From Patescibacteria group bacterium (GTDB lineage: Bacteria > Patescibacteriota > Patescibacteriia > Patescibacteriales > VMTK01), in the NCBI GenBank assembly GCA_018896595.1, contig JAHIME010000023.1, forward strand, positions 1-46,210: 46,210 nucleotides of DNA, written 5' to 3'. Both the position numbers and the translations under genes were made by a program. How positions within the stretch are numbered: the first letter of the stretch is position 1; each line of letters starts with the position of its first letter. Shown piece after piece: positions 1,641 to 46,210 of this stretch. The notes beneath the pieces were generated by a model, which was not told where the DNA came from, ran no database searches, and was given only the letters and a program-made list of their open reading frames with translations.

Positions 1641-3548
1641 ATGAAAAGAAATATGTCCGCCCAAGGCGGATCCGCCTTGGGCGGAAAAAATATCAAAATA
1701 AAAATAAACGGACAAGAAATAATTTGTTCGCCTGATAAGAATATTTACAAGGCTGCCAAAGAAAACGGGATTTTCATTCCCGGGCTTTGCGGCCACCCCG
1801 ATTTTCCGGCAAAGGGCAATTGCCGCGTTTGCGTCGTGGAAATAAAAGGAAGAAAAAATTTGGCTACATCATGCTCCACGAAAGTTGAAGCCGGCATGGA
1901 GATTGTTACGGACAGCGAGCGGGTGAAAAAAGCGCGCAATTTGAATATTGAATTGATTTTTGCCGAACATATTGAAAAATGCCCGACTTGCATTTGGAGG
2001 TTTAATTGTCCTTTATTGAATTTTGCCGACAGATACAAGATTGAAATTACCCGTTTTCCGGACAGAAAAGGCAAAAGGGATATTTATAAATTCGCCAACG
2101 CGGTGGAAATTGACGGCACCCAGTGCATTGACTGCCGCAACTGCCTTGATTCCTGCTCAATGCTGCAAAAAATTAATTATCTTGAATTAAAAGGGAAGGG
2201 GCATAACCAGGAAATCGTCCCCGTAAGCGATAAAAAGGTTGATTGCATTTATTGCGGCCAGTGCGCCGTCCATTGTCCGGTCGGCGCGGCGCAGGAGCAG
2301 ACGCATTGGGATATGGCGGAGAAAGCGATAGAGGACGCGAAAGAGAAACCCGGAATTTTTTCAAAAATATTATCCGCCGCTCCATCGCACAACCAAGGCA
2401 AATCAGCGCCGGCGGATAGGGCCGGCCATAAAAGTAAAATTATTATCGCCCAATTTGCTCCTTCAATCCGCGTAAGCATCGGGGAAGAGTTCGGCCTGCC
2501 TCACGGCAAGATTGTTACAGGGCAAGTCATCGCCGCTTTGAAAAAATTAGGCTTTGATTATGTTTTTGACGTTAATTTCGGCGCTGACACGACTACTATG
2601 GTGGAAGCGGAGGAACTGTTAGACAGATTAAAGAAAGTGGGAAGCGGAAATAATGGTTTAAGTAAATTTAAATCTCTAAACCCTAATCCCCAAGCCCTAA
2701 TCCCTAATTTGCCGATGATGACATCTTGCTGCCCGGCGTGGGTTAAATACGTTGAATTTTATCATCCGGAATTGATTCCCAATTTGACAACTTCCAGGTC
2801 CCCCCAGATCCATAGCGGGGCAATATTTAAAACGTATTGGGCGCAAAAAATGAACATAAACCCCAAAAATATCATTGTGGTTTCAGTAATGCCCTGCACG
2901 GCTAAAAAGTTTGAGGCGTCAAGAAAAGAACTGAAAGTTGACGGGCAATGGCCGGTTGATTACGTTATTACCACGAGGGAGTTCGCATGGATGATAAAGA
3001 AAAATAATATTGATTTCGCCAAATTAAAGTCCGCGCCTGCCGACGATTTATTGGGCGAGTATAGCGGCGCGGCCGCGATTTACGGAGCGAGCGGGGGAGT
3101 TATGGAATCCGCTTTGCGCACAGTCCAGTTTATGGCCTGCAAAGGCAAGCGCCAAGGAAGCTTGTGCGATGCGAGAATTGATTACAAAGATGTTCGCGGG
3201 ATTGCCGGCATTAAAGAAGCGGCCGTGGATGTGGCAGGCAAAAAATTAAGAGTGGCAGTGGTTAACGGCATCGGCAACATTGAGCCGGTTTTAAAAAAAT
3301 TAAACGATTATGATTACATTGAAGTTATGGCTTGTCCGGGCGGCTGTATCGGCGGCGGCGGCCAGCCGATTCCGACCACGCCGGAGATTAGGCAAAAGAG
3401 AATGGATGCTTTGTATAAATTGGATAAAAGCATGAAAATAAGAAAAGCGCATGAGAATAAGGGGGTGTTGGAAGCGTTAAAATGGCTGAAAGGCCAAGGC
3501 AAGCTGGAGCATCAGGTTTTGCATACGGGGTATAAAAAGAGAAATTGA
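1641..3548 (+). CDS. hydA: [FeFe]-hydrogenase catalytic subunit with N-terminal 2Fe-2S and ferredoxin-like 4Fe-4S domains
   Basis: H-cluster motifs TSCCPAW, MPCTAKKFE and ACPGGCIGGGGQP. N-terminal cysteine motifs CGHP..CRVC, CIDCRNCLDSC and CIYCGQCAVHCP. Confidence 0.9.
   Translation: MKRNMSAQGGSALGGKNIKIKINGQEIICSPDKNIYKAAKENGIFIPGLCGHPDFPAKGNCRVCVVEIKGRKNLATSCSTKVEAGMEIVTDSERVKKARNLNIELIFAEHIEKCPTCIWRFNCPLLNFADRYKIEITRFPDRKGKRDIYKFANAVEIDGTQCIDCRNCLDSCSMLQKINYLELKGKGHNQEIVPVSDKKVDCIYCGQCAVHCPVGAAQEQTHWDMAEKAIEDAKEKPGIFSKILSAAPSHNQGKSAPADRAGHKSKIIIAQFAPSIRVSIGEEFGLPHGKIVTGQVIAALKKLGFDYVFDVNFGADTTTMVEAEELLDRLKKVGSGNNGLSKFKSLNPNPQALIPNLPMMTSCCPAWVKYVEFYHPELIPNLTTSRSPQIHSGAIFKTYWAQKMNINPKNIIVVSVMPCTAKKFEASRKELKVDGQWPVDYVITTREFAWMIKKNNIDFAKLKSAPADDLLGEYSGAAAIYGASGGVMESALRTVQFMACKGKRQGSLCDARIDYKDVRGIAGIKEAAVDVAGKKLRVAVVNGIGNIEPVLKKLNDYDYIEVMACPGGCIGGGGQPIPTTPEIRQKRMDALYKLDKSMKIRKAHENKGVLEALKWLKGQGKLEHQVLHTGYKKRN
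1655..1693. repeat. miniature double-hairpin element plus 6-nt duplication, inserted in frame at the hydA start
   Basis: Perfect 30-nt palindrome tccgcccaaggcgga/tccgccttgggcgga at 1656-1685, flanked by AAATAT at 1649-1654 and 1688-1693. Deleting 1655-1693 (39 nt) restores MKRNIKIKINGQ. Confidence 0.75.
2664..2711. repeat. heptanucleotide tandem repeats (TAATCCC-type) inside hydA
   Basis: The units taaaccc, taatccc, caagccc, taatccc and taatttg are read through as SLNPNPQALIPNL, just upstream of the conserved TSCCPAW motif. Confidence 0.6.
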
Positions 3549-36159: not shown

Positions 36160-37044
36160 CTATTTTTTTTGCGCGACGCCTATCTTCCACACACCTTTTT
36201 CAAGGAAGGCCTCTATTGTTTGGCGGCTTGCCTTATTAATCAAATTAGAGTGTGATATTTTATTTATTTTCGCGTATTCCGCGAGCGTCATAATATGCGC
36301 GCCCTCCAGATACGCGAGCCTCTTGTGGTAACTGTTGGTAAGCGCTTTTCCTACTATTTCTTCCATAATAGTAGTCGCGCCTTTTTCATCAAATTCTTTA
36401 AACGCTTCGTAATATTTCTTTCTGTCAATAAATTTTATGTTTATTGGAACAAACCCTTCTCGTATTAACAAATAGTTGTTTATAACACGCCCAATGCGAC
36501 CATTGCCATCGCAAAATGGATGAGTGTATTCAAAAGCAAGATGCAATCCCGCTATCCTTTTAATTATATTTTCATGACTCGCAGCATTATACTCGGACAA
36601 CATTTTTTTCAGACGACCCGCCACTTCTTTGGGGTTAGGAGCAATATGACTGCCGACACGCACAAATTCATTGTCTTTTCTAAACCTCCCGGCAATATCG
36701 TCACGAATATTTGAAATCAACATTTTATGAAGTGATAAAATTACCTCAAGAGTAAGCTCTTGCTCCTTAGCTCCTTTGTCAATATATGATACAACTTGCG
36801 CGAGATTTTTTGCCTCAAAAATTTCTCGTTCAGTGATATATCTGTCCAAATCTATTTGCAAAAGTATTTTCTCTGTTTCCTCAAGAGTAAGAGTGCTGTT
36901 TTCAATGGCGTTAGAGTTATATACCTGTTCGGCCACCTCCGCCTCGTTCAATAATTTTAACAGCGCCTGTTTGCCAACAGACGCAGTATAATAGCGTTCT
37001 CTTAAACGAGAGATTGTGTTAAAAATATGTAATACTTTTGCCAT
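36160..37044 (-). CDS. Fic/DOC-family protein
   Basis: Fic motif HPFCDGNGRIGR. Confidence 0.85.
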   Translation of the reverse strand: MAKVLHIFNTISRLRERYYTASVGKQALLKLLNEAEVAEQVYNSNAIENSTLTLEETEKILLQIDLDRYITEREIFEAKNLAQVVSYIDKGAKEQELTLEVILSLHKMLISNIRDDIAGRFRKDNEFVRVGSHIAPNPKEVAGRLKKMLSEYNAASHENIIKRIAGLHLAFEYTHPFCDGNGRIGRVINNYLLIREGFVPINIKFIDRKKYYEAFKEFDEKGATTIMEEIVGKALTNSYHKRLAYLEGAHIMTLAEYAKINKISHSNLINKASRQTIEAFLEKGVWKIGVAQKK

Positions 37045-37363: not shown

Positions 37364-37420
37364 AAAATTAGAGAGTTACTATTGATAGGTGGAACCGGAT
37401 ATTCCGTGTTATCGGATGTA
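37312..37420. repeat. attC-like element A0 (degenerate left arm)
   Basis: The right arm CCGGATATTCCG-T-GTT-ATCG-GATGTA (37395-37420) is intact. The left arm keeps ATATCCGG, but AAC is replaced by CGC. Confidence 0.45.
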
Positions 37421-37526
37421 TTGCTTTTTTGGGCGTTATCCTTTGGCGATTAGCCAAAATAAAACAAATACTTTTAGGAAGCGGGAAGGCGGAATGACCA
37501 CCTTCCCTAATAAAGAAAGACTACTT

Positions 37527-37718
37527 TCAGAAAGCACCTTGCCAAAAACTGAGCGGTGTCCAGCCCTCCCTTGTGTCAACTGCGCGACGCCTAATCTCTT
37601 CGAAAAATTCAGGTCGCTCTTTCCTCATTACATCAAGTCGTTGCTCAATATCTGGCACGAGCGCCACCAGCAACTGGAAATTGGTGTTTTCTGCGGGTAC
37701 TGCGTTTACATTTGTCAT
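37527..37718 (-). CDS. cassette ORF, 63-aa hypothetical protein
   Basis: Strong RBS on the minus strand (AAAGGAGGAAGGT then ATG). Located between A0 and A1. Confidence 0.6.
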   Translation of the reverse strand: MTNVNAVPAENTNFQLLVALVPDIEQRLDVMRKERPEFFEEIRRRAVDTREGWTPLSFWQGAF

Positions 37719-37798
37719 ACCTTCCTCCTTTGGTTGTTTTTTAACAAACGCCTTTCCGATTTAGCAGCTTCCTAAAAATATTTGTTTTAAAAGAACAA

Positions 37799-37912
37799 TA
37801 TTTCGGCATAACGTATCGGCATATCTGATGTTTTACGAAGCGTAGCGGAGTAAAATATGGGTGGAGGCTTTTGTAAAAAGCCGTAACCAGATATGCCGTG
37901 TTAGCTGATGTA
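37799..37912. repeat. attC-like element A1
   Basis: Left arm TATTTC-GGCAT-AAC-GTAT-CGGCATATCTG. Right arm CAGATATGCCG-T-GTT-AGCT-GATGTA. Inner stem TTTTAC/GTAAAA. Confidence 0.7.
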
Positions 37913-38032
37913 TTCCTTTTCTTTTTTCCGACAGCAGTCGGAATTGTTTTAAAAAATTTTCAAATTTCTTTTTCCGTTTTGGATTTTGGGCAGAGGGGCT
38001 GGGGGTGAATGCCCCGAAGCCAAGACTCCTTA

Positions 38033-38281
38033 TTAATTCATTGTAATTTTAAACTTATTTTCTACCACATTTATTTTAAAGCCATGTGGGTCAGTCCATT
38101 CGCTTCCGTTATTGGCTCTGGTTAAAAATTGATTTAGCGTTGATTGCTCGTCACCAACCGGTTTATCTATTTCCGATTCCGTATATCCGGGGATTTTTTC
38201 TAAAATATATCGAGTGGTTTCTTCCCTTGAACCAAATGAATTGAGATTTGTTTCCAAATTACGTGGTGTTTCGCTAAACAT
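38033..38281 (-). CDS. hypothetical protein (82 aa)
   Basis: ORF 10 nt downstream of the 473-aa ORF in the same cassette. Confidence 0.5.
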   Translation of the reverse strand: MFSETPRNLETNLNSFGSREETTRYILEKIPGYTESEIDKPVGDEQSTLNQFLTRANNGSEWTDPHGFKINVVENKFKITMN

Positions 38282-38291
38282 AAAATTTGAT

Positions 38292-39713
38292 TTAGGTTTT
38301 TAGATTTAACTTAGTTTTTAAATAATTTAATGCTTCAAGCGCTGTTTGGTCTTTTGTCGGATCAAATAATTTGTCACTCACGGTCGGATCCACCAATAAA
38401 GTGCTTCCCAATTCGGCGATAAATTCACGTTCTCCATCCCACGGATGTCCTGCGTTCGTTTCATCTTTCATACGATGCTTTAGCCGGAACTTATCTAATT
38501 GCGAACCCTGATATTTTTGTCCCATGAGTTGCAAATAGTATTTAGAAAGCTGAACATCAATAAAGCCTTTTGACTGCCACCTTTCGCACGCCTCATGTCC
38601 AGTAGACTGTAATAGATCACCAATTTCGTGACTATGTTCGATATAGTCGCTGGAAAAATAAATCGAATTTTGCGTCCACCCTGCCTCGTTCGCGTCGCCG
38701 GAGCTAATATCAACGTACATAATTGGTTCAGCGCTAAAAGCTTGGTTTAAATGTTCTAAAACTCCAGCCATTTTATCAAATTTATCTCGGTGGCGATCAA
38801 GAAATTCCGCAAAATTGAAATCGGGCTTGATCGAGCCAAAAACTATTCCGTTTTTTGCGGTATAGTGTCGAGCAGAGAGTGTTTTTTCTAGATATCGTTC
38901 TTTATCTCCAGTTTGTACTGCCAATCTGGTGGAAACAATATCTCGTTCAAACCATTGAGTTTTTTCTGGAGGGAAATTTTGTATTCTGTTTTGTAAGTTG
39001 TCCAAAATTTCAGCGGATAGATGATGGTCAGCAAGCAAACCTGCTATTTCTATAATATTGTAGGTACCCATTGTTTGGCAGATTTTATCCCCCGAATCGG
39101 TCATGTATTGTTTTAGCAAAGTAGAAATTTTTTCGCCCTCAAATGGAATGCCCGCTCTTAAACCAGTCAAAACGGCTCTTGTTCTTAATTCATAGCCATA
39201 CTTTTGTTCGTCGGCTATTTTTAGCATTTTGTTTCTTGCTTCAGGAGATTTATTTTTTCCTAAAGAATCAATTGCCGTATTGCACAAATAAACATTTTCG
39301 TGATTTATATCTATAAAATCAGCTATCAATTGAACGCTATTGGGTTGTGAAATTTCGCCTGCGACTGAAAGAGCGGCTTGAATTTTTTGATAAGCAAAGA
39401 GTTGTTTGGCTTTTGCCTCGCCCATTTCTTCGTCGGCTCTATTATAATTTTCGCCATTCAGAACCGCGGTAATTTGGTATAGATCAATGCGGTTGTTATT
39501 ATTCAAAAGCCAATCAAGATTTTCTTGGAGTTTTTGTTTCCCATTTGAGCTTGCCAGATGATTCAATTCTTCTAAAGCCGTTGATAGAGTGCCTTGAATT
39601 TTAGATATTTCACCTCGTTCTTTTGTTTCATAAATATCAAGAAGGATAGCGGTAGGACGCTCTTTTTTTGTTTCCGTTTCAATTGCGGTTAAAATATTTT
39701 TTTCTGGATTCAT
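38292..39713 (-). CDS. hypothetical protein (473 aa)
   Basis: Long uninterrupted ORF with no domain recognised by eye. Confidence 0.7.
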   Translation of the reverse strand: MNPEKNILTAIETETKKERPTAILLDIYETKERGEISKIQGTLSTALEELNHLASSNGKQKLQENLDWLLNNNNRIDLYQITAVLNGENYNRADEEMGEAKAKQLFAYQKIQAALSVAGEISQPNSVQLIADFIDINHENVYLCNTAIDSLGKNKSPEARNKMLKIADEQKYGYELRTRAVLTGLRAGIPFEGEKISTLLKQYMTDSGDKICQTMGTYNIIEIAGLLADHHLSAEILDNLQNRIQNFPPEKTQWFERDIVSTRLAVQTGDKERYLEKTLSARHYTAKNGIVFGSIKPDFNFAEFLDRHRDKFDKMAGVLEHLNQAFSAEPIMYVDISSGDANEAGWTQNSIYFSSDYIEHSHEIGDLLQSTGHEACERWQSKGFIDVQLSKYYLQLMGQKYQGSQLDKFRLKHRMKDETNAGHPWDGEREFIAELGSTLLVDPTVSDKLFDPTKDQTALEALNYLKTKLNLKT

Positions 39714-39723
39714 AATATTTGAT

Positions 39724-39757
39724 TAAATCGTTTTCGTAGCGGAGCGGAGAAAACACC
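39724..39757. repeat. 34-nt block identical to 43891-43924
   Basis: taaatcgttttcgtagcggagcggagaaaacacc contains the hairpin GTTTTC-N13-GAAAAC. On the minus strand it lies 10 nt upstream of the start codon at 39713. Confidence 0.8.
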
Positions 39758-39842
39758 ATATACCCCCCCCTAAATAATTAAAAATAAAATTTGTTCATTA
39801 CAGAAAAGTGTCGCCCGCCACAGCGGGCGAAAAAGAAAAGCA

Positions 39843-40051
39843 TATTTCATATAACGTATCCGAGTATGCGAAGTTCGCTTTTCGGATTTAATGAATTAAT
39901 TATGTTAATTGGCTTAATCCTATTTTATCGCACTATTCCTGAAATTACCACCTATCGGAGAAAAGCGAATTTGGGTCGAGAAAATTTTTCACTCCTTGAA
40001 ATATAACTGATGAAAAATTTTTGAGCCGCATGTGCCGTGTTGTCTGATGTA
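39843..40051. repeat. attC-like element A2 (long, 209 nt)
   Basis: Left arm TATTTC-ATAT-AAC-GTAT-CCGAGTATGCG. Right arm CGCATGTGCCG-T-GTT-GTCT-GATGTA. Inner stem TTCGCTTTTC/GAAAAGCGAA. A 29-nt block (39969-39997) is identical to 46179-46207. Confidence 0.65.
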
Positions 40052-40095
40052 TTTTTTCATCTTCTATTTTATTGGCACAAACTTTGCTTGTTCTA

Positions 40096-40176
40096 AAAGA
40101 AAATTCGATTTTTAAATTTAAAGTTTTTGTTTTGCCGAATGGCAAAACGATTATTTGGGGGCAATTTAATTTTTTA
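40096..40176. repeat. left copy of the ~80-bp inverted repeat bracketing the AlaX-like gene
   Basis: A 33-nt block (40096-40128) and a 19-nt block (40149-40167) are exact reverse complements of 40901-40933 and 40872-40890. A private hairpin GTTTTGCC-gaat-GGCAAAAC lies between the two blocks. Confidence 0.85.
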
Positions 40177-40180
40177 TTTT

Positions 40181-40849
40181 TTATTTGAGTTTGATGTTTA
40201 TGGTTGGCATGCCTTTCTTCTTATTATATTCAATCTCAACTATGCCTATCTCAGAAATGTTTTTAACATGCGTTCCGCCACAAGGAATTTTGTAACCAAG
40301 ACATTCCCACCAACGAAATCCTTTCTTTTCAGTATCAGGATAAGTTTTAACATCCGCCCCTGATGAAATAGCCTCACGAAAAACCTCATTCGTTTTTTCA
40401 ACTAGCTCGAGCGTTATTTCATCGCTTTCATATCTATTAAAAACAAAGCCGTCTTGAATATCTGAGACTTTCGGAAACGGCAAAGACTTGCCAGCAGTTT
40501 TTTCAAGTAAGCAATGATGCAAATGAGCAGCAGTGTGTAGTTTCATCTGTCTGTTGCGAAATTCCCAGTTAAGTTTGCATAACACCTTTTGACCTTTAAC
40601 ATCTTCCGGAATCTTTTCGGTCGTTATTATGATAATGCCATCTTCGTTGTAGGGGTCTTTTAAAGTATCAGTAACATTATAATTTGAGCCATTGATGACA
40701 AATGTACCCTTATCACCTTTCTGTCCTCCCCCACGAGGGTAGAAAATATTATCAGCGACCTGAACACAGTTCTGGTCATTTTCGGTAAATGCCCCCGTGA
40801 TAGTTGTGTTGATTTCTGTTAAATACTGATCTTCGTAAAATTTGTGCAT
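40181..40849 (-). CDS. AlaX-like protein (alanyl-tRNA synthetase editing-domain / metal-dependent hydrolase family)
   Basis: HTAAHLHH (HxxxH) and CGGTHV motifs. Confidence 0.8.
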   Translation of the reverse strand: MHKFYEDQYLTEINTTITGAFTENDQNCVQVADNIFYPRGGGQKGDKGTFVINGSNYNVTDTLKDPYNEDGIIIITTEKIPEDVKGQKVLCKLNWEFRNRQMKLHTAAHLHHCLLEKTAGKSLPFPKVSDIQDGFVFNRYESDEITLELVEKTNEVFREAISSGADVKTYPDTEKKGFRWWECLGYKIPCGGTHVKNISEIGIVEIEYNKKKGMPTINIKLK

Positions 40850-40862
40850 AGTTTTTGTGAAT

Positions 40863-40933
40863 TAAAAAATAAAATTGCCCCCAAATAATCCGCGAAGCGG
40901 AAAAACTTTAAATTTAAAAATCGAATTTTCTTT
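40863..40933. repeat. right copy of the inverted repeat bracketing the AlaX-like gene
   Basis: See 40096-40176. The private central hairpin here is CCGC-gaa-GCGG. Confidence 0.85.
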
Positions 40934-40982
40934 CTTTGTTTATATCACCAAACTCCTAAAATTACCACCAAAGATGAAAAAA

Positions 40983-41094
40983 TATTTCAGACAACGTATC
41001 GCTATATCCGAAGTTTTTTAGAGCGAAGCGAAAAAGAATTTGCGCGTAGGCTTTCGAAAAAGCCGCAACCGGATATAGCGTGTTATATGATGTA
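40983..41094. repeat. attC-like element A3
   Basis: Left arm TATTTC-AGAC-AAC-GTAT-CGCTATATCCG. Right arm CGGATATAGCG-T-GTT-ATAT-GATGTA, with perfect 11-bp stem pairing. Confidence 0.7.
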
Positions 41095-41222
41095 CATGTT
41101 TTCCTTTAATCCGCCTTAGGCGGATTGCTCTAAAAAAGAATTCAATTTTTTTTCGTTTTGGGCTTCGGGAAGAGGGGTTAGGGGTGAATTCCCGAAGCCC
41201 AAAACTCCTTAGCGTATTTGTT

Positions 41223-42317
41223 TTAAATTTTTCTGTATCTAGAGCTTCTGCCAAGTCCGATTCTTTCTATCTTTTTAAGTTTAAGCAAAACATCCAAAGC
41301 CTGTTTGACGGTCGGCCTGGCTATGCGAGTATTTTTAATAATATCGCCCGTACTGGTTTCTTTGATCTTTTCAATATATTGCCAGATAATAAGCTGTTTT
41401 TCTGACAAGATTTTTTCTATATTTTCTTTGGATAAAAGTTCAACTGCCATTTGCGATTGCTTTAAAACAATATCCAAGAAAAAATCAAGCCAGGCGGTGA
41501 TGCTTTCTTCTTTCGAGCCGATAGTTTTTTGGCTTCTTCTAAGTGAAACATAGTAGTCTGGTTTATTGTCTTCTACTAATTTTTCATGAGAAACATACGG
41601 CATATATTGATAGCCCGCATGCAATAAGAGTAAATTTGTAAGTACGCGAGACAGTCTTCCGTTGCCATCAGAAAAAGGATGAATCTTTAAAAACTCAACT
41701 AAAAAATTGCCTATTACCAATAGCGGATGATATTTGTTTTCTTTTAGCGCTTTTTGCGTCCAGTCGGTCAGGTCGCACATTTGGCCCGGAGTAAGATAGG
41801 CCGGCGAGGTATCAAAAAGAATGCCGATTGACTGTCCGGCTTCATCTATCATATGAACCTTATTTTCTCCTTTTTTATATTCACCACGATGCCCTTGATC
41901 CTTTTCCGCGTATTTCAGAAGTTCTTTGTGAAAATGCTTAACTAGGCTTTCGTTAAACTTTAAGCCTTTCCATGAATTAAAAACATTTTCCAGCAGTTCA
42001 TAATAACCTTTAACTTCTTGCTTGTCGCGATTGGTAAATTTTTGTACATTAATGCCTCGCATTAATTTTTCAATATCTGCGTCGGATAGGCGAGAGCCTT
42101 CAATACGAGTAGATGCGCCGGTTGAAGTAATCAAAACCGACCGCTTCAATCTTCCTAGAACTTGCGGGCTAAGGCGAGCGCCTGATATCCATCGTCCCTT
42201 TAGCTCATCAATTTTAGCTATTTTAGAAACGATGCTGGCTGGAATATTCTCAATCCGTTTTGAAAAATTGTCTGAAGTTATATGTTTTTCTGTTGTTTTA
42301 TTAGTGTTTTTTGACAT
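41223..42317 (-). CDS. Fic-family protein with a C-terminal wHTH-like tail
   Basis: Fic motif HPFSDGNGRLSR. Confidence 0.85.
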   Translation of the reverse strand: MSKNTNKTTEKHITSDNFSKRIENIPASIVSKIAKIDELKGRWISGARLSPQVLGRLKRSVLITSTGASTRIEGSRLSDADIEKLMRGINVQKFTNRDKQEVKGYYELLENVFNSWKGLKFNESLVKHFHKELLKYAEKDQGHRGEYKKGENKVHMIDEAGQSIGILFDTSPAYLTPGQMCDLTDWTQKALKENKYHPLLVIGNFLVEFLKIHPFSDGNGRLSRVLTNLLLLHAGYQYMPYVSHEKLVEDNKPDYYVSLRRSQKTIGSKEESITAWLDFFLDIVLKQSQMAVELLSKENIEKILSEKQLIIWQYIEKIKETSTGDIIKNTRIARPTVKQALDVLLKLKKIERIGLGRSSRYRKI

Positions 42318-42396
42318 AAATTTAATTGGATATATTAACTATATCCAATTATAGCCAATTATTGAGGATTGGTCAATTTTTGAAAGTGAGAAAAAA

Positions 42397-43023
42397 TTAA
42401 TTTATTTTTTCTATTTTAGTTGCAATTATTGTCGGTATTGGTCTATTGAGGCCGTCCACACCTAAATCAATATCCTCAATTTCCCCATAAATAAGAAAAG
42501 TATCTTTATCCCAATCAATTTTTTCAGGATTAAGACCAGAATATGTTTTAAACATGTAACTTGGCCAAAAACCATCCCAGTTAGTCTGTCTTTCGGGACT
42601 ATTTTCGGTAGCTAAGTTTACTGGAAATAGCCAAAACCAATCACAATCTGCACGTGAATCTGCATTTTTGTGCTTATCGTCAATAATGCAAAATTTAATT
42701 CCATCAATTTGACTATATCTATTAGCGACCCTTCCCATCCATTGTACATTTTTTCCTCTATAAATACTGTGCTTTTCCATTTCACCATCAGAATTTTTTT
42801 CTTGAATAAAAGAATTTTCATTAATAACGTCTGCATAACTTAAAACAGTGGTAGAAGCTAACATTTTGTTCGCGTTTATATTATTAACCAGAGTTGACTG
42901 CTCATTTTTTTCATTATCTAAAGTAAAATTTAAATTTTTAGAAATAGAACAGCCAGCGGATAATAAGGGTAAAATCAATAAAATAAGAAATCTTATCATA
43001 ATTGCATAGTAATTTATTGCCAT
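42397..43023 (-). CDS. secreted protein or lipoprotein, function unknown
   Basis: N-terminal signal-like segment ending LLSAGCS (lipobox-like). Confidence 0.6.
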   Translation of the reverse strand: MAINYYAIMIRFLILLILPLLSAGCSISKNLNFTLDNEKNEQSTLVNNINANKMLASTTVLSYADVINENSFIQEKNSDGEMEKHSIYRGKNVQWMGRVANRYSQIDGIKFCIIDDKHKNADSRADCDWFWLFPVNLATENSPERQTNWDGFWPSYMFKTYSGLNPEKIDWDKDTFLIYGEIEDIDLGVDGLNRPIPTIIATKIEKIN

Positions 43024-43026
43024 ATA

Positions 43027-43884
43027 TTAAAAGTTAACGAGTATGTTTTTATAATAAAAAATCATATTTTTTAACCATCTTTGAATATAGTTTGAACTTG
43101 CGACTCTTTCTCTAATCCAATCTATGCCTATAATTTTTTCAGACAGGCTTGATCTTTCTTGAGTAGATATTAAATATCCATCTATGTTTAATTTTTCATT
43201 ACTTTTTAATTTTACTTGCGCCCAAAATGTTTTTTTAGGTAAGCCAAAATAATTATCAGCTAATCTTACTCTTAAATCATAGTCCTTAAGAGTCCCTCCC
43301 CGGAACGACGAGCAAAGGCAATTATTCTCGGAAAATATTAAAAAAATCAAAGTTTCAAATTCAGTTGGCGATAAATATTTATAAAAATTATTTAAATCTA
43401 TACTAATTTTTTCGTTATTTATTAAAGCAACGGCAAATTCATTTTCAGAATTGTTTAATTTTTTTATTGTTCCTCTGTTATATTTTTGATTAGCATTTAT
43501 ATTAGAAAAAAATTCCGGTAAATCAATTTTTCTATAATGAGCTATTAGCTTTGAATTAATTGATTTGGGTAGGTCGCCATCGCCAGGATAAATATATTCA
43601 TTAGGGCCATCTTCAATCTTTCGGCCAACCTTTTTTAAACAATAAATTTTTTCTTCACAAAAAATCCAAAAATTTACATCGTTCTCCTTTTCTAAATTAT
43701 AGAATGTTTTTATTTGTTCTTTTGCTTGGTTAGATTTTTGTTGGTTTATTCCAATACTAACTTCATCCGCTCTCCATTTTCCAAAATATATAGATAATGG
43801 GCAAACTTCACCGCATCCAGTGTCGAGCCATGTTTTAAAGCCTTCATTTCCAATTTGAAATTTAAAATAGTAATTATTCATCAT
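43027..43884 (-). CDS. hypothetical protein with a C-terminal Mrr-like PD-(D/E)xK nuclease-type motif
   Basis: PTEFETLIFLIF...GGTLKDYDLRV...WAQVKLK resembles the Mrr catalytic domain pattern (FE..l, D.GiDl, QvK). The start was set at the MM at 43884, because the upstream extension runs into the conserved 34-nt block. Confidence 0.55.
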   Translation of the reverse strand: MMNNYYFKFQIGNEGFKTWLDTGCGEVCPLSIYFGKWRADEVSIGINQQKSNQAKEQIKTFYNLEKENDVNFWIFCEEKIYCLKKVGRKIEDGPNEYIYPGDGDLPKSINSKLIAHYRKIDLPEFFSNINANQKYNRGTIKKLNNSENEFAVALINNEKISIDLNNFYKYLSPTEFETLIFLIFSENNCLCSSFRGGTLKDYDLRVRLADNYFGLPKKTFWAQVKLKSNEKLNIDGYLISTQERSSLSEKIIGIDWIRERVASSNYIQRWLKNMIFYYKNILVNF

Positions 43885-43890
43885 AATTAA

Positions 43891-43924
43891 TAAATCGTTT
43901 TCGTAGCGGAGCGGAGAAAACACC
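43891..43924. repeat. 34-nt block identical to 39724-39757
   Basis: Same sequence. On the minus strand it lies 6 nt upstream of the start codon at 43884. Confidence 0.8.
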
Positions 43925-44005
43925 CTATTTCCCCTCATTAAATTAATTAAAAAACAAAATTGAATTCTTTTTTAAGAGCTGGGCGAAGCCCAAAAGGAAA
44001 ACATG

Positions 44006-44144
44006 TATTTCATATAACGTTTCGGCATCATCCGAAGTTTTTGTGCAGTGAAACGGAACAAAAATTTGGGAGAAGGAATTTTTCTTACCTTGAATTATAA
44101 ATGTGCAAAATTTCCGAACCGGATATGCCGTGTTCTGCGATGTA
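44006..44144. repeat. attC-like element A4
   Basis: Left arm TATTTC-ATAT-AAC-GTTT-CGGCAT-C-ATCCG (one extra C). Right arm CGGATATGCCG-T-GTT-CTGC-GATGTA. Confidence 0.7.
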
Positions 44145-44149
44145 AAAAT

Positions 44150-44575
44150 TTAACTTCGTCCCAATATAAACAACCCGACTAGCACCACAACTATACCAGC
44201 AATTTTAGCTGCGCTAATAGGCTCCCTGAGTATAATTATGCCAAGAATTACTGCAATTACTATTGTGCCTCCTACCACCAATGGATTGCCTATTGAGATT
44301 GGCGCGTTCTTTGAATACATCGACAGGTAGAAAATTTCTGCGGCGCCCGCAAACAACCCAGCCACAATTGGCAACAACAAACTGCTCTTAGTGAAAACCA
44401 AGCTTTGGCCAGACATTTTCAAGTATATCGTTGAAATTATTGCGACCAACAAAGAAGCTCCAGCTATAAACATATTAGCCAAAGCGGGGCTGAATTTATC
44501 CGCAGAAATTTTCGTGAAGAAGTTGTAGAAGCCGAAAGTTGAAGCAGCTAAAATTGCGTAGGTTAACCAATTCAT
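44150..44575 (-). CDS. small EamA/DMT-like membrane protein
   Basis: 141 aa with 4-5 TM helices and a single EamA-like repeat. The stop codon lies 5 nt from A4. Confidence 0.65.
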   Translation of the reverse strand: MNWLTYAILAASTFGFYNFFTKISADKFSPALANMFIAGASLLVAIISTIYLKMSGQSLVFTKSSLLLPIVAGLFAGAAEIFYLSMYSKNAPISIGNPLVVGGTIVIAVILGIIILREPISAAKIAGIVVVLVGLFILGRS

Positions 44576-44603
44576 AATATTTTTAAGTGAGAAGTTAAAT
44601 TTT

Positions 44604-44757
44604 TATTTCGCAGAACGTTTAAGTATATGAGAAGTTTCGCCGACTTCCTTATTATTCTATCATAAAGGAGGCGAAATTTGGGTGAAAGAAAAGTGCAACC
44701 TTTGAAAATTTATAACGCACTTTTTCTTGAACCTCATATACTTTGTTAGGCGATGTA
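44604..44757. repeat. attC-like element A5
   Basis: Left arm TATTTC-GCAG-AAC-GTTT-AAGTATATGAG. Right arm CTCATATACTT-T-GTT-AGGC-GATGTA. Inner stem TTTCGCC/GGCGAAA. Confidence 0.7.
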
Positions 44758-44775
44758 TTTTTGAAAAATTATTTC

Positions 44776-45474
44776 TTATAAAACTTTTATTTCTTTTTTG
44801 TATTCTTCAATTTCTTTCGGTAAGTTTTTTAAACTATTTTCGGAGATAATATTAAAAATATTTTTATCACCACGATCTTGTATCGTATAATTAACCAAAA
44901 TATCTTTAAAATAGTTCGTGCATATTGCGTCTACAAGTCCTTCTTTTTCGATGTGTGTTAATTCAAACTTTTTTATAATACATTCTTCGATTCCTATGTG
45001 GATGATTTCATGTACTATTGTATGCAGAGGATTGCGTTTAAAAATGCCGCCCTCATTTGTTTTTATAATAATATTACCTTCTCTACAATTATATGACCCG
45101 CCTGGGCCATAAGCCGTCAGTCTAACTTCATATTTTGGAAAAAGTTTGAATCCCCAATTTCTCCACTCTCCCATTTTTTTTATTGCTTTTTCGATTATAT
45201 CAACTTCTTGGATTACGGTTTTTAATCCATTTTTGAAATATTCTAAAGAATATACTTCCTTTCTAAATATATCTTTCGCTTCCTTCGCGTCCAATGTATT
45301 AAGCAAATCTAAATCATTTGAAATCTTTAAAAAAAATGGATGATCGGGGATTGGTATTTTATAGCCATGCTCATTATAGAATGACATTTTTCCAAAGACT
45401 TTAAAAAGATAATCAAATTCTTCATCGATAGTTTGTGCGCGAATAATTATTTTATAGTCCGTTCTGATACTCAT
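44776..45474 (-). CDS. putative zinc metallopeptidase (HExxH)
   Basis: HTIVHEIIHIGIEE contains HEIIH. No other domain recognised. Confidence 0.55.
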   Translation of the reverse strand: MSIRTDYKIIIRAQTIDEEFDYLFKVFGKMSFYNEHGYKIPIPDHPFFLKISNDLDLLNTLDAKEAKDIFRKEVYSLEYFKNGLKTVIQEVDIIEKAIKKMGEWRNWGFKLFPKYEVRLTAYGPGGSYNCREGNIIIKTNEGGIFKRNPLHTIVHEIIHIGIEECIIKKFELTHIEKEGLVDAICTNYFKDILVNYTIQDRGDKNIFNIISENSLKNLPKEIEEYKKEIKVL

Positions 45475-45519
45475 ATTAAAAAAAGAAATAAAAGTTATTG
45501 AATTTGTAATTTTTCAAAA

Positions 45520-46035
45520 ATATTTTGCCTAACGTATCTCGATATCTGAAGTTTTTATTTTTCTCCTATGTTTTATTAGTAAAGAAAAAAATAAAAATTT
45601 GGGTGTAGCTAAAAAATAATTTATTTTCTCGTTCCAACCAAATCAAAGCCTTCAAAATGCACAGCGTCATCCATGAAAACCTCGATGACCTTATAGACAC
45701 CCTTGGTATACATAATGTTGTTATCTACAAAATGGGTGGCTTCTAAAATGACGATGCTCGCTTTGGGACGTGATAAAACCTCATTACCCTGAGTTTCAAT
45801 TAACGGAATAGATCCGTACAGCCAATAATTACGCTGGTCGCGTTTTAGAAAATCATAAGTTTGTCCTGCACGAAGGTCTTCAGGAATACATTCTTCGATT
45901 TTTCGACGGCCTTGTTTATGCTCCGAAATATTTCGTAAGGCCAGGTCGGGATTGAACTCAACTTTGATACCCATAAGCGTAAGAGAAAATAAATTATTTT
46001 TTAGCGTAACCAGATATCGCGTGTTAGATGATGTG
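45520..46035. repeat. attC-like element A6, with arms about 460 nt apart and an ORF in the loop
   Basis: Left arm TATTTT-GCCT-AAC-GTAT-CTCGATATCTG (45520-45547). Right arm CAGATATCGCG-T-GTT-AGAT-GATGTG (46011-46035). 10 of 11 stem positions pair. Confidence 0.55.
45621..45974 (-). CDS. hypothetical protein (117 aa) located inside element A6
   Basis: The start was set at the Met at 45974. The track start at 46061 would read across the arms of A6 and A7. Confidence 0.5.
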   Translation of the reverse strand: MGIKVEFNPDLALRNISEHKQGRRKIEECIPEDLRAGQTYDFLKRDQRNYWLYGSIPLIETQGNEVLSRPKASIVILEATHFVDNNIMYTKGVYKVIEVFMDDAVHFEGFDLVGTRK

Positions 46036-46058
46036 CCGAACTCCTTATTTCTTTTCGG

Positions 46059-46210
46059 CATTTCATCTAACGTCTACGCATCATCTGAAGTCCCGCACCT
46101 TTAATGGCAGAAAACTTTGATTAGCGTATTATTTTGATTAACGAGTTATATTTGGATTATACCACAGGCTGGTGCGGGATTTGGGTCGAGAAAATTTTTC
46201 ACTCCTTATT
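46059..46210. repeat. attC-like element A7 (left half only, truncated by the window end)
   Basis: Left arm CATTTC-ATCT-AAC-GTCT-ACGCATCATCTG-AAG. Inner stem TCCCGCACC/GGTGCGGGA. Followed by the ATTTGGGTCGAG... block shared with A2. Confidence 0.6.

Follow-up and report, generated by a model that had tools for sequence, protein, structure and literature searches.

A whole gene inside an attC-like site of a cassette array in a Patescibacteria genome

The stretch of DNA analysed here, called the window throughout, is an entire contig (C100) of 46,210 bp from the very small genome of a Patescibacteria group bacterium from groundwater. The genome spans 970 kb in 105 contigs and is 91.7% complete; its nearest named relatives are Candidatus Falkowbacteria MAGs. 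From about position 37,395 to the contig end, the window holds an array of gene cassettes in which every cassette gene lies on the minus strand. Genes in the array or next to it (36160-37044, 41223-42317, 40181-40849 and 44150-44575) code for two Fic/DOC proteins, a protein with an AlaX-like tRNA-editing domain and a half-size EamA-type transporter.

Between the cassettes lie sites of a single family, which is also present on contigs C36, C101 and C19. Read on the plus strand, the left arm of a site has the form xxxxAAC-GT.T-stem(11-12)-.AGTT and the right arm the form stem(11)-T-GTT-xxxx-GATGT. The right-arm family TGTTNNNNGATGT is found at seven places in the array. Ordinary sites with these arms enclose 60-190 nt and no gene, and those of the array have a short variable terminal structure of 3 to about 100 nt. 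Cassette ends are complementary across 25-140 nt, and long complementary flanks surround every cassette gene here. The initial pattern search of the genome yielded sites with 12-nt stems only. A loose pattern for the arms gave 104 left-like and 342 right-like matches in the whole genome, largely noise, and was replaced by a scan for paired arms, which produced no false positives on the four array contigs.

In integron biology, a cassette is assumed to consist of a gene followed by a short folded site. Site A6 of the array has a different layout. Its features and those next to it are as follows.

37395..46210, plus strand: cassette array with sites A0-A7, including A6
45527..45533, plus strand: R''-type core GCCTAAC of A6, the AAC of which pairs with the GTT at 46023-46025 in folds
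45534..45537, plus strand: one-sided unpaired spacer GTAT, facing a single T at 46022
45538..45548, plus strand: left L-box stem CTCGATATCTG, complementary to 46011-46021 at 10/11 positions
45549..45600, plus strand: side hairpin 1 of the Y-shaped A6, found in folds and as helix 3 of the covariation analysis
45598-45609, plus strand: internal motif TTTGGGTGTAGC
45608..45630, plus strand: left half of side hairpin 2, whose 23-bp stem closes off the loop with the gene; perfect inverted repeat
45621..45974, minus strand: gene for a protein of 117 aa, of a conserved family
45983..46005, plus strand: right half of side hairpin 2 (23-bp stem), located 8 nt upstream of the start codon ATG and supported by the inverted repeat, folding and covariation
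46004-46011, plus strand: internal motif GCGTAACC
46011..46021, plus strand: right L-box stem CAGATATCGCG, supported by the partner matrix, folding and covariation
46023..46035, plus strand: R'-type core GTTAGAT (46023-46029), preceded by T, with the conserved extension GATGTG
46036..46058, plus strand: 23-nt hairpin CCGAA-N13-TTCGG, read as the empty cargo slot of A6's own unit
46059..46071, plus strand: CATTTC-ATCTAAC, the unit end (to A46070) and the R'' core of A7
46069..46210, plus strand: site A7, consisting of left arm ACGCATCATCTG and variable part, cut off by the contig end

All coordinates of the initial annotation, including those of the two internal motifs, proved correct when the sequence was read again. 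This also applies to the complementarity that it reported between ATCT of the A7 core and AGAT at 46026-46029.

The perfect 23-nt inverted repeat formed by 45608-45630 and 45983-46005 brackets the open reading frame, and its left half overlaps the final codons and the stop codon of the gene. It is a continuation of a short stem that stands at the same place in the ordinary sites A1 and A3. Between the L stems of A6 lie about 460 nt, including the 354-nt ORF, and about 485 nt in site C101a; both are outside the range of the ordinary terminal structures. G45534 can form a wobble pair with T46022, and this G.T pair is invariant in 6/6 aligned copies. The same layout is found in contigs from public sequencing runs: record 7 of X2 matches 45344-46097 with 0 differences, and record 24 of X4 matches 45662-46164 with 1 difference.

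Evidence that the two distant arms belong together can be obtained by comparing them with all other arms of the family in the window genome. In a matrix of 12 left and 12 right arms, the A6 left arm pairs at 10/11 positions with its own right arm, as the initial annotation had claimed, at 9 with one other arm and at 5-8 with the other ten; left and right arm are each other's best partners. They also carry a common signature that is absent from the other sites. Among the 11 sites with both arms known, own-partner stems are complementary at 10-11/11 positions in eight and at 11/11 in seven (A1, A3, A4, A5, C36a, C36b and C101a). Weaker stems are seen in C101b (8/11) and A2 (7/11 plus two G.T pairs), and A6 has one mismatch. 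According to the initial annotation, a left arm that paired equally well with many other right arms, together with remnants of a lost right arm, would speak against a single split site. No remnant of a lost left or right arm was found in 45554-46007, where the best stem complements reach 6-7/11 and fuzzy core matches are at chance level; so this objection falls.

The site family consists of imperfect palindromes of the attC type, with AAC/GTT cores and inner stems in which the structure is conserved and the sequence is not. Folding, which had been suggested as a check, agrees with this for A6. In the minimum-energy fold of the entire 520 nt as single-stranded DNA (DNA parameters), the AAC/GTT R box, the L box, the junction and the 23-bp stem are retained on both strands, with 48 long-range pairs on the plus strand and 51 on the minus strand. 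When the interior is deleted in silico, A6 gives the ordinary Y-shaped fold of the family. If the AAC of the next site is included in the fold, the R' box pairs preferentially with that AAC through the 23-nt hairpin. In a linear array, according to this prediction, such pairing may compete with formation of the A6 site.

Split sites can be found in other genomes as well. Comparison with other copies, also proposed at the outset, showed that five other MAGs (loci L024, L025, L030, L038 and L062) carry the same 117-aa gene in a split site of A6 geometry, with arms 91-104 nt and 54-66 nt off the gene ends. In a sample of 80 loci related to the locus of the 117-aa gene, split arms matching at 10/11 or better were present at 7/80 loci, compared with 8/395 controls with mismatched flanks. 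At 9/11 or better there was no enrichment (16/80 loci, 65/395 controls), and only matches of at least 10/11 with the family geometry were counted. Generic compact AAC..GTT sites within 450 nt of the gene were not enriched either, with 4/80 loci and 5/80 reversed sequences.

The same type of shell also surrounds other genes. For instance, C101a (11/11, with the fold retained) and C101b (8/11) enclose other genes, five of the seven sites at L030 are split, and L062 has a second split site. The split-site layout is thus recurrent in the family and not a one-off. One split site at L030 (reverse complement, 1163-2199) contains two genes (97 aa and 191 aa), and a separate AT-rich stem closes each of them, which means that one site can hold more than one stem-closed gene module. 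The closing-stem family of A6 is found in a cargo slot of the window (37457-37494 / 37764-37791) and inside an L030 site too, with 89% and 93% identity. No convincing split site was found in the array of G010, a genome of the same order and another family.

If the arms of a split site are kept as partners, they are expected to change together. The L stems of the copies differ yet remain complementary: CTCGATATCTG, GGTTGTATCTG, TGTTGTATCTG, CTGAATATGTG and AAGTATATGGG. Covariation was measured in an alignment of six sequences (the window, L024, L025, L030, L038 and L062), with pairs taken from the family model because the fold with the next core had diverted the R' box. Paired cells made up 95.1%, against 85.2+/-1.2 in shuffles, with none of 500 shuffles reaching this value, and both-sided pair changes numbered 19, against 7.8+/-2.0 (0/500); these shuffle statistics can be inflated, since the six sequences are related by descent. 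Slid controls, which are unaffected by relatedness, had 45-57% paired cells. Compensatory change is seen at 7/11 pairs of the split L stem (helix 2), which spans about 490 nt. Side hairpin 1 (helix 3) has both-sided change in 8/13 pairs and 97% of its cells paired. The closing stem (helix 6) has 15 pairs, 100% paired in the six genomes, two of them compensatory. The copies in which the arms show compensatory change are only 64-90% identical.

Partner specificity, folding and covariation in six genomes all place ORF 45621-45974 where the variable terminal structure of the site belongs, as had been proposed from the sequence. A6 is a single attC-like site, and its layout is neither an accident nor an assembly artefact.

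The extent of the piece that moves can be seen from the points at which homology between copies begins and ends. In the closest copy, L024 (89.5% identity over 562 nt), the left neighbour differs. Homology to the window begins exactly at A45531, the A of AAC, passes the right GTT, a 12-nt slot that is shorter than that of the window and the next AAC, and reaches +68 beyond the right GTT. Homology between L025 and L026 (91%) stops at +38, which is the AA of the next AAC, and that between L025 and L030 (85%) covers the site alone, from -8 to +13 around it. These boundaries indicate a mobile piece that runs from AA|C to AA|C and consists of the site with its gene and a nearly empty cargo slot. 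Because the unit has different neighbours in different genomes, it must have moved after the gene entered. In the contigs of four public runs, which cannot show rare forms, there was neither a joint skipping 45533-46070 nor a circle junction.

The 23-nt hairpin between A6 and A7 had been described as an empty cassette. Where the window has this hairpin, L024, L025, L026 and L062 have a slot of 12-14 nt. The slot is indeed empty, but the homology boundaries place it within the unit of A6, so that it is more likely the empty cargo slot of that unit than a separate cassette. The related proposal of a cassette consisting of attC alone holds in the same modified sense, as an empty slot within the A6 unit. 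A decayed unit was observed at L026 (reverse complement, about 2800-3440): the gene, the right arm and the empty slot are kept, but unrelated sequence stands in place of the left arm and side hairpin 1.

The window stops inside the array and contains no recombinase gene. On C36, which carries sites at 191-1292, the array ends in GGCATAAC|TCG... (junction at about 1665-1675). The gene for a tyrosine recombinase starts about 100 nt further on (1780-2600), on the strand opposite to the cassette genes. The C36 gene shifts frame about 20 codons in (C36:1780-1860, locus L003), reading MKLEELLEKIKNELRL... and then, in another frame, ...NFSPKTIKGY. The shift reflects either an error in the assembly or a pseudogene, which makes recombinase activity in the window genome uncertain. 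In G010, a long array of sites of the same family has the same ending and lies next to an intact orthologue of 272 aa. The C36 protein is 66.5% identical to it over 239 aa, and the two genes have the same array side and orientation. On C36 and G010 alike, the array lies beside the recombinase gene, and its cassette genes are oriented away from that gene.

The best matches of the recombinase are of the XerA type, and its best solved relative is an XerC-like/XerA protein. NCBIfam model NF040815 gives 210 bits for the N-terminally truncated C36 ORF, with a cut-off of 220. TIGR02249 matches at positions 5-181 and 237-313 only, and the ORF scores 185 bits, below the cut-off of 265. In an alignment to VchIntIA (2a3v), IntI residues 183-240 correspond to about 15 residues of the C36 recombinase, which is therefore not an IntI-type integrase with the IntI-specific additional domain. 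Contig C93 carries another tyrosine recombinase gene, of 327 aa, the product of which could be available to serve chromosome resolution.

In integron biology, the IntI-specific domain is assumed to be required for recombining folded sites. The system described here, with a XerA-like recombinase at the array end that does not have this domain, is integron-like and not a canonical integron. By the field's definition it is not an integron, though built like one, because Cury et al. 2016 (PMC4889954) exclude recombinases near attC sites without the IntI-specific domain, which 'are not IntI'.

As in the attC sites of class 1 integrons and the VCR of Vibrio cholerae, each site is an imperfect palindrome with an outer AAC/GTT box and an inner L stem, conserved in structure and variable in sequence, and the sites separate co-oriented cassettes beside a tyrosine recombinase gene (PMC2727003). 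The variable part differs in size. It measures 3-100 nt in natural class 1 sites (PMC7439510) and 65 bp in the VCR (PMC2727003), whereas that of A6 holds a whole gene in about 460 nt; removal of the VCR variable part is described as hardly mattering if the site arrives single-stranded (PMC2727003). A second, probable difference lies in the unpaired bases. In classical attC sites (PMC2727003), the R''-L'' arm carries the extrahelical bases, and recombination takes place in R'. Here the extra bases (GTAT facing T, and an extra C in A4, A7 and C36b) belong to the arm with the AAC at which the unit begins or ends and at which the crossover would take place, so the attC analogy is imperfect in mechanism. 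The complementarity of cassette ends over 25-140 nt also sets the family apart from attC systems.

Sedentary chromosomal integrons and the CALINs of IntegronFinder (PMC4889954) likewise comprise numerous cassettes in a chromosomal array, with homogeneous sites and genes of mostly unknown function; the recombinase without intI_Cterm or additional domain, and the host, a CPR bacterium of about 1 Mb, set the present system apart from them. Although the recombinase resembles archaeal XerA and XerC/D, it ends a cassette array in two genomes of different families, and the sites are folded palindromes of 90-500 nt, in contrast to the 28-bp dif. A whole gene inside the folded site is a layout not described for integrons: in openly available main texts, no description of such CPR arrays or of genes inside attC sites was found.

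Taken together, A6 is probably a working or recently working site for recombination of folded DNA in an integron-like cassette system, in which the closing stem would nucleate folding and the gene would travel in the loop. The plus strand, antisense to the cassette genes, would fold as single-stranded DNA into a Y-shaped hairpin. In order, the fold would consist of the outer AAC/GTT box, the one-sided unpaired GTAT, the 11-bp L stem and two side hairpins, the second of which, in A6, would be the 23-bp stem with the complete 117-aa gene as its loop. When this stem zips, the half-sites about 480 nt apart would be rejoined and the site would still be recognisable. Crossover would take place between A45532 and C45533. 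The resulting mobile unit, C45533-A46070, would contain the site with its gene, GTTAGAT-GATGTG, the 23-nt hairpin and CATTTC-ATCTAA. Such a cassette could be called inside-out: the usual gene slot is nearly empty, and the gene is in a loop closed by the L box. Recombination would be catalysed by the short, XerA-like tyrosine recombinase whose gene stands where the array ends.

The unit boundaries, the minus-strand genes and the position of the recombinase agree in suggesting the plus strand as the counterpart of the integron 'bottom' strand. Indirect hints of recombination through a folded strand are provided by the plus strand folding better than the minus strand in 5/5 ordinary sites, and by the invariant G.T pair.

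Alternatively, A6 may be a fossil: a fragment carrying a gene would have ended up by chance within the loop of an ordinary site and inactivated it, the arms being leftovers that have not yet decayed. Natural class 1 variable parts are just 3-100 nt long (PMC7439510), and the mismatch in the A6 stem, the L026 copy without a left arm and the frameshifted recombinase gene of the window genome would suit such a history. However, the arms have stayed paired through compensatory change at 7/11 positions in copies 64-90% identical, the unit lies between different neighbours in each genome and so moved once the gene was inside, and the layout recurs with unrelated genes, including at 5/7 L030 sites. 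A fossil is thus improbable, although it is the strongest of the competing explanations.

Large DNA inside an attC site is also seen with some mobile elements. Group IIC-attC introns and IS1111-attC elements reportedly insert into attC, interrupt the site and bring their own mobility genes. The perfect 23-nt inverted repeats around the gene might be the terminal repeats of a transposon or MITE-like element that targets hairpin tips. The inserts of A6-type sites differ from those elements in being small ordinary genes without a mobility gene, placed at a hairpin tip where a stem preserves the fold. Neither a transposase nor a reverse transcriptase is present, Pfam gives no match for the cargo genes, and no consistent target duplication is seen (the repeat has GTA beside it in the window, but not at L025 or L030). 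Nor does A6 have the identical scattered ends of such elements: the repeats covary like the two sides of a stem and, together with the shell, vary between sites, and the cargo is unrelated. Such an insertion is very unlikely.

Scarcely more plausible than that, and if anything a little less, is an invertible switch, in which the arms would be double-stranded inverted recombination sites and the recombinase would flip the gene between them. The arms are indeed mutually inverted repeats, and the array ends at a gene for a tyrosine recombinase. Yet the gene is opposite to the AAC-to-GTT strand in 12/12 split sites with a clear gene (A6, C101a, C101b, L024, L025, four in L030, L038 and two in L062), none of the copies had the gene in the flipped orientation, and ordinary sites with the same arms have no gene that could be flipped.

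Least probable of all is the fusion of two cassettes considered in the initial annotation, in which deletions took away the facing arms of two successive sites (right arm of the first, left arm of the second) and left a chimeric pair around the gene: a left arm abutting a foreign right arm in the G010 array (5072/5102 of the oriented region) means that such rearrangements happen in the family, but the A6 arms are specific partners with a signature unseen in other sites, co-vary as partners of one site and are kept matched in six genomes in a conserved unit, the interior has no arm remnants, and the gene is directly flanked by the halves of side hairpin 2 and not by cassette-end sequences. The insertion of a gene into an attC loop, also listed there, is correct as a description of the architecture.

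Under the preferred reading of A6 as a folded recombination site, compensatory evolution and the movement of units between arrays argue that the site family works, or did so very recently, with a whole gene in the folded part. If this is confirmed, the size of the variable part sets no limit as long as there is a closing stem, and standard attC search tools with a size limit would miss such cassettes. A gene at a hairpin tip would then also provide a concrete and testable model for the genesis of cassettes and for the way in which ultra-small bacteria and archaea exchange genes.

How the gene came into the hairpin is a matter for a more tentative proposal. Both loops of the folded site might be gene slots. 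Hairpins already in place, namely the side hairpins of sites and the small hairpins that stand in empty cargo slots (46036-46058 is one), would capture genes at their tips, and their stems would turn into the long inverted repeats that surround all cassette genes. A6-type units would then be snapshots of cassettes being born from ordinary chromosomal genes, for example the 117-aa gene. This scheme is doubtful at present, although not far-fetched; it agrees with the finding of the closing-stem family in a cargo slot as well as in the L030 site, and with the complementary flanks of every cassette gene.

The 117-aa ORF, judged from its homologues, is a real and widely conserved gene. Of 1304 candidates, 1302 belong to its family at E<=0.001, and the best 120 of the matches, which are those listed, are nearly all 117 aa long, with 69-95% identity and a spread over many CPR lineages; genome contigs extend the family to DPANN archaea. 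The longest open frame on the minus strand (45621-46061) would code for 146 aa, beginning in the empty slot and reading through the right arm, and one database protein of 149 aa does likewise. Since nearly all of the 120 best listed homologues have 117 aa, the 146-aa start is probably not the true one, and gene callers probably over-extend the gene.

Neither the 117-aa protein nor the other loop genes have a match in Pfam or NCBIfam. The AlphaFold model of the 117-aa protein has a pLDDT of 82.5, and four of the five AlphaFold models made have 58-65. Foldseek found no PDB match for the 117-aa model at E<=0.001. Its top matches are weak (TM 0.35-0.47) and comprise Lon N-terminal, cereblon Lon-like, ASCH and SRA-type beta-barrels, a hint only that the predicted structure may resemble PUA-like beta-barrels.

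The gene is inside a site in six genomes. At 29 of the first 37 loci of the gene, no flanking inverted repeat exceeded those of shuffles. At L056, the gene occupies an ordinary cargo slot by a compact 12/12 site.

Several further features of the array were observed. Positions 46179-46207 in A7 are identical to 39969-39997 inside site A2. Three public runs contain high-depth contigs with the arms of A4 (window 44038-44117) around another, shorter variable part of 37 nt; sites that share arms and differ in their variable part therefore coexist in the same communities.

The word CTCCTTA (TAAGGAG on the gene strand, Shine-Dalgarno-like) is found at 38026-38032, 41205-41211 and 46041-46047, and also at 39990-39996 inside A2. 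It stands 0-11 nt past the stop codons of two cassette genes and inside the 23-nt empty slot. CTCCTT is present in the variable part of several sites, and the cassette genes are mostly without such a word ahead of their ATG.

Mini-sites and mini-cassettes that carry no gene (GTTATGC ... GCATAAC) make up a GC-rich block of about 190 nt, which is found at C36:1-190, at C101:1-190 and at the end of C19 (reverse strand). The window genome has at least three copies of it, and contigs break at the block. In G010, the block directly adjoins the recombinase-proximal junction of the array.

Finally, words like GCGAAGC recur in the hairpin loops of sites and in cassette flanks (window 40893-40901, 41021-41035 and 37838-37852). 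The sequence d(GCGAAGC) forms an unusually stable DNA mini-hairpin, and the recurrence of such words would fit selection for single-strand folding.
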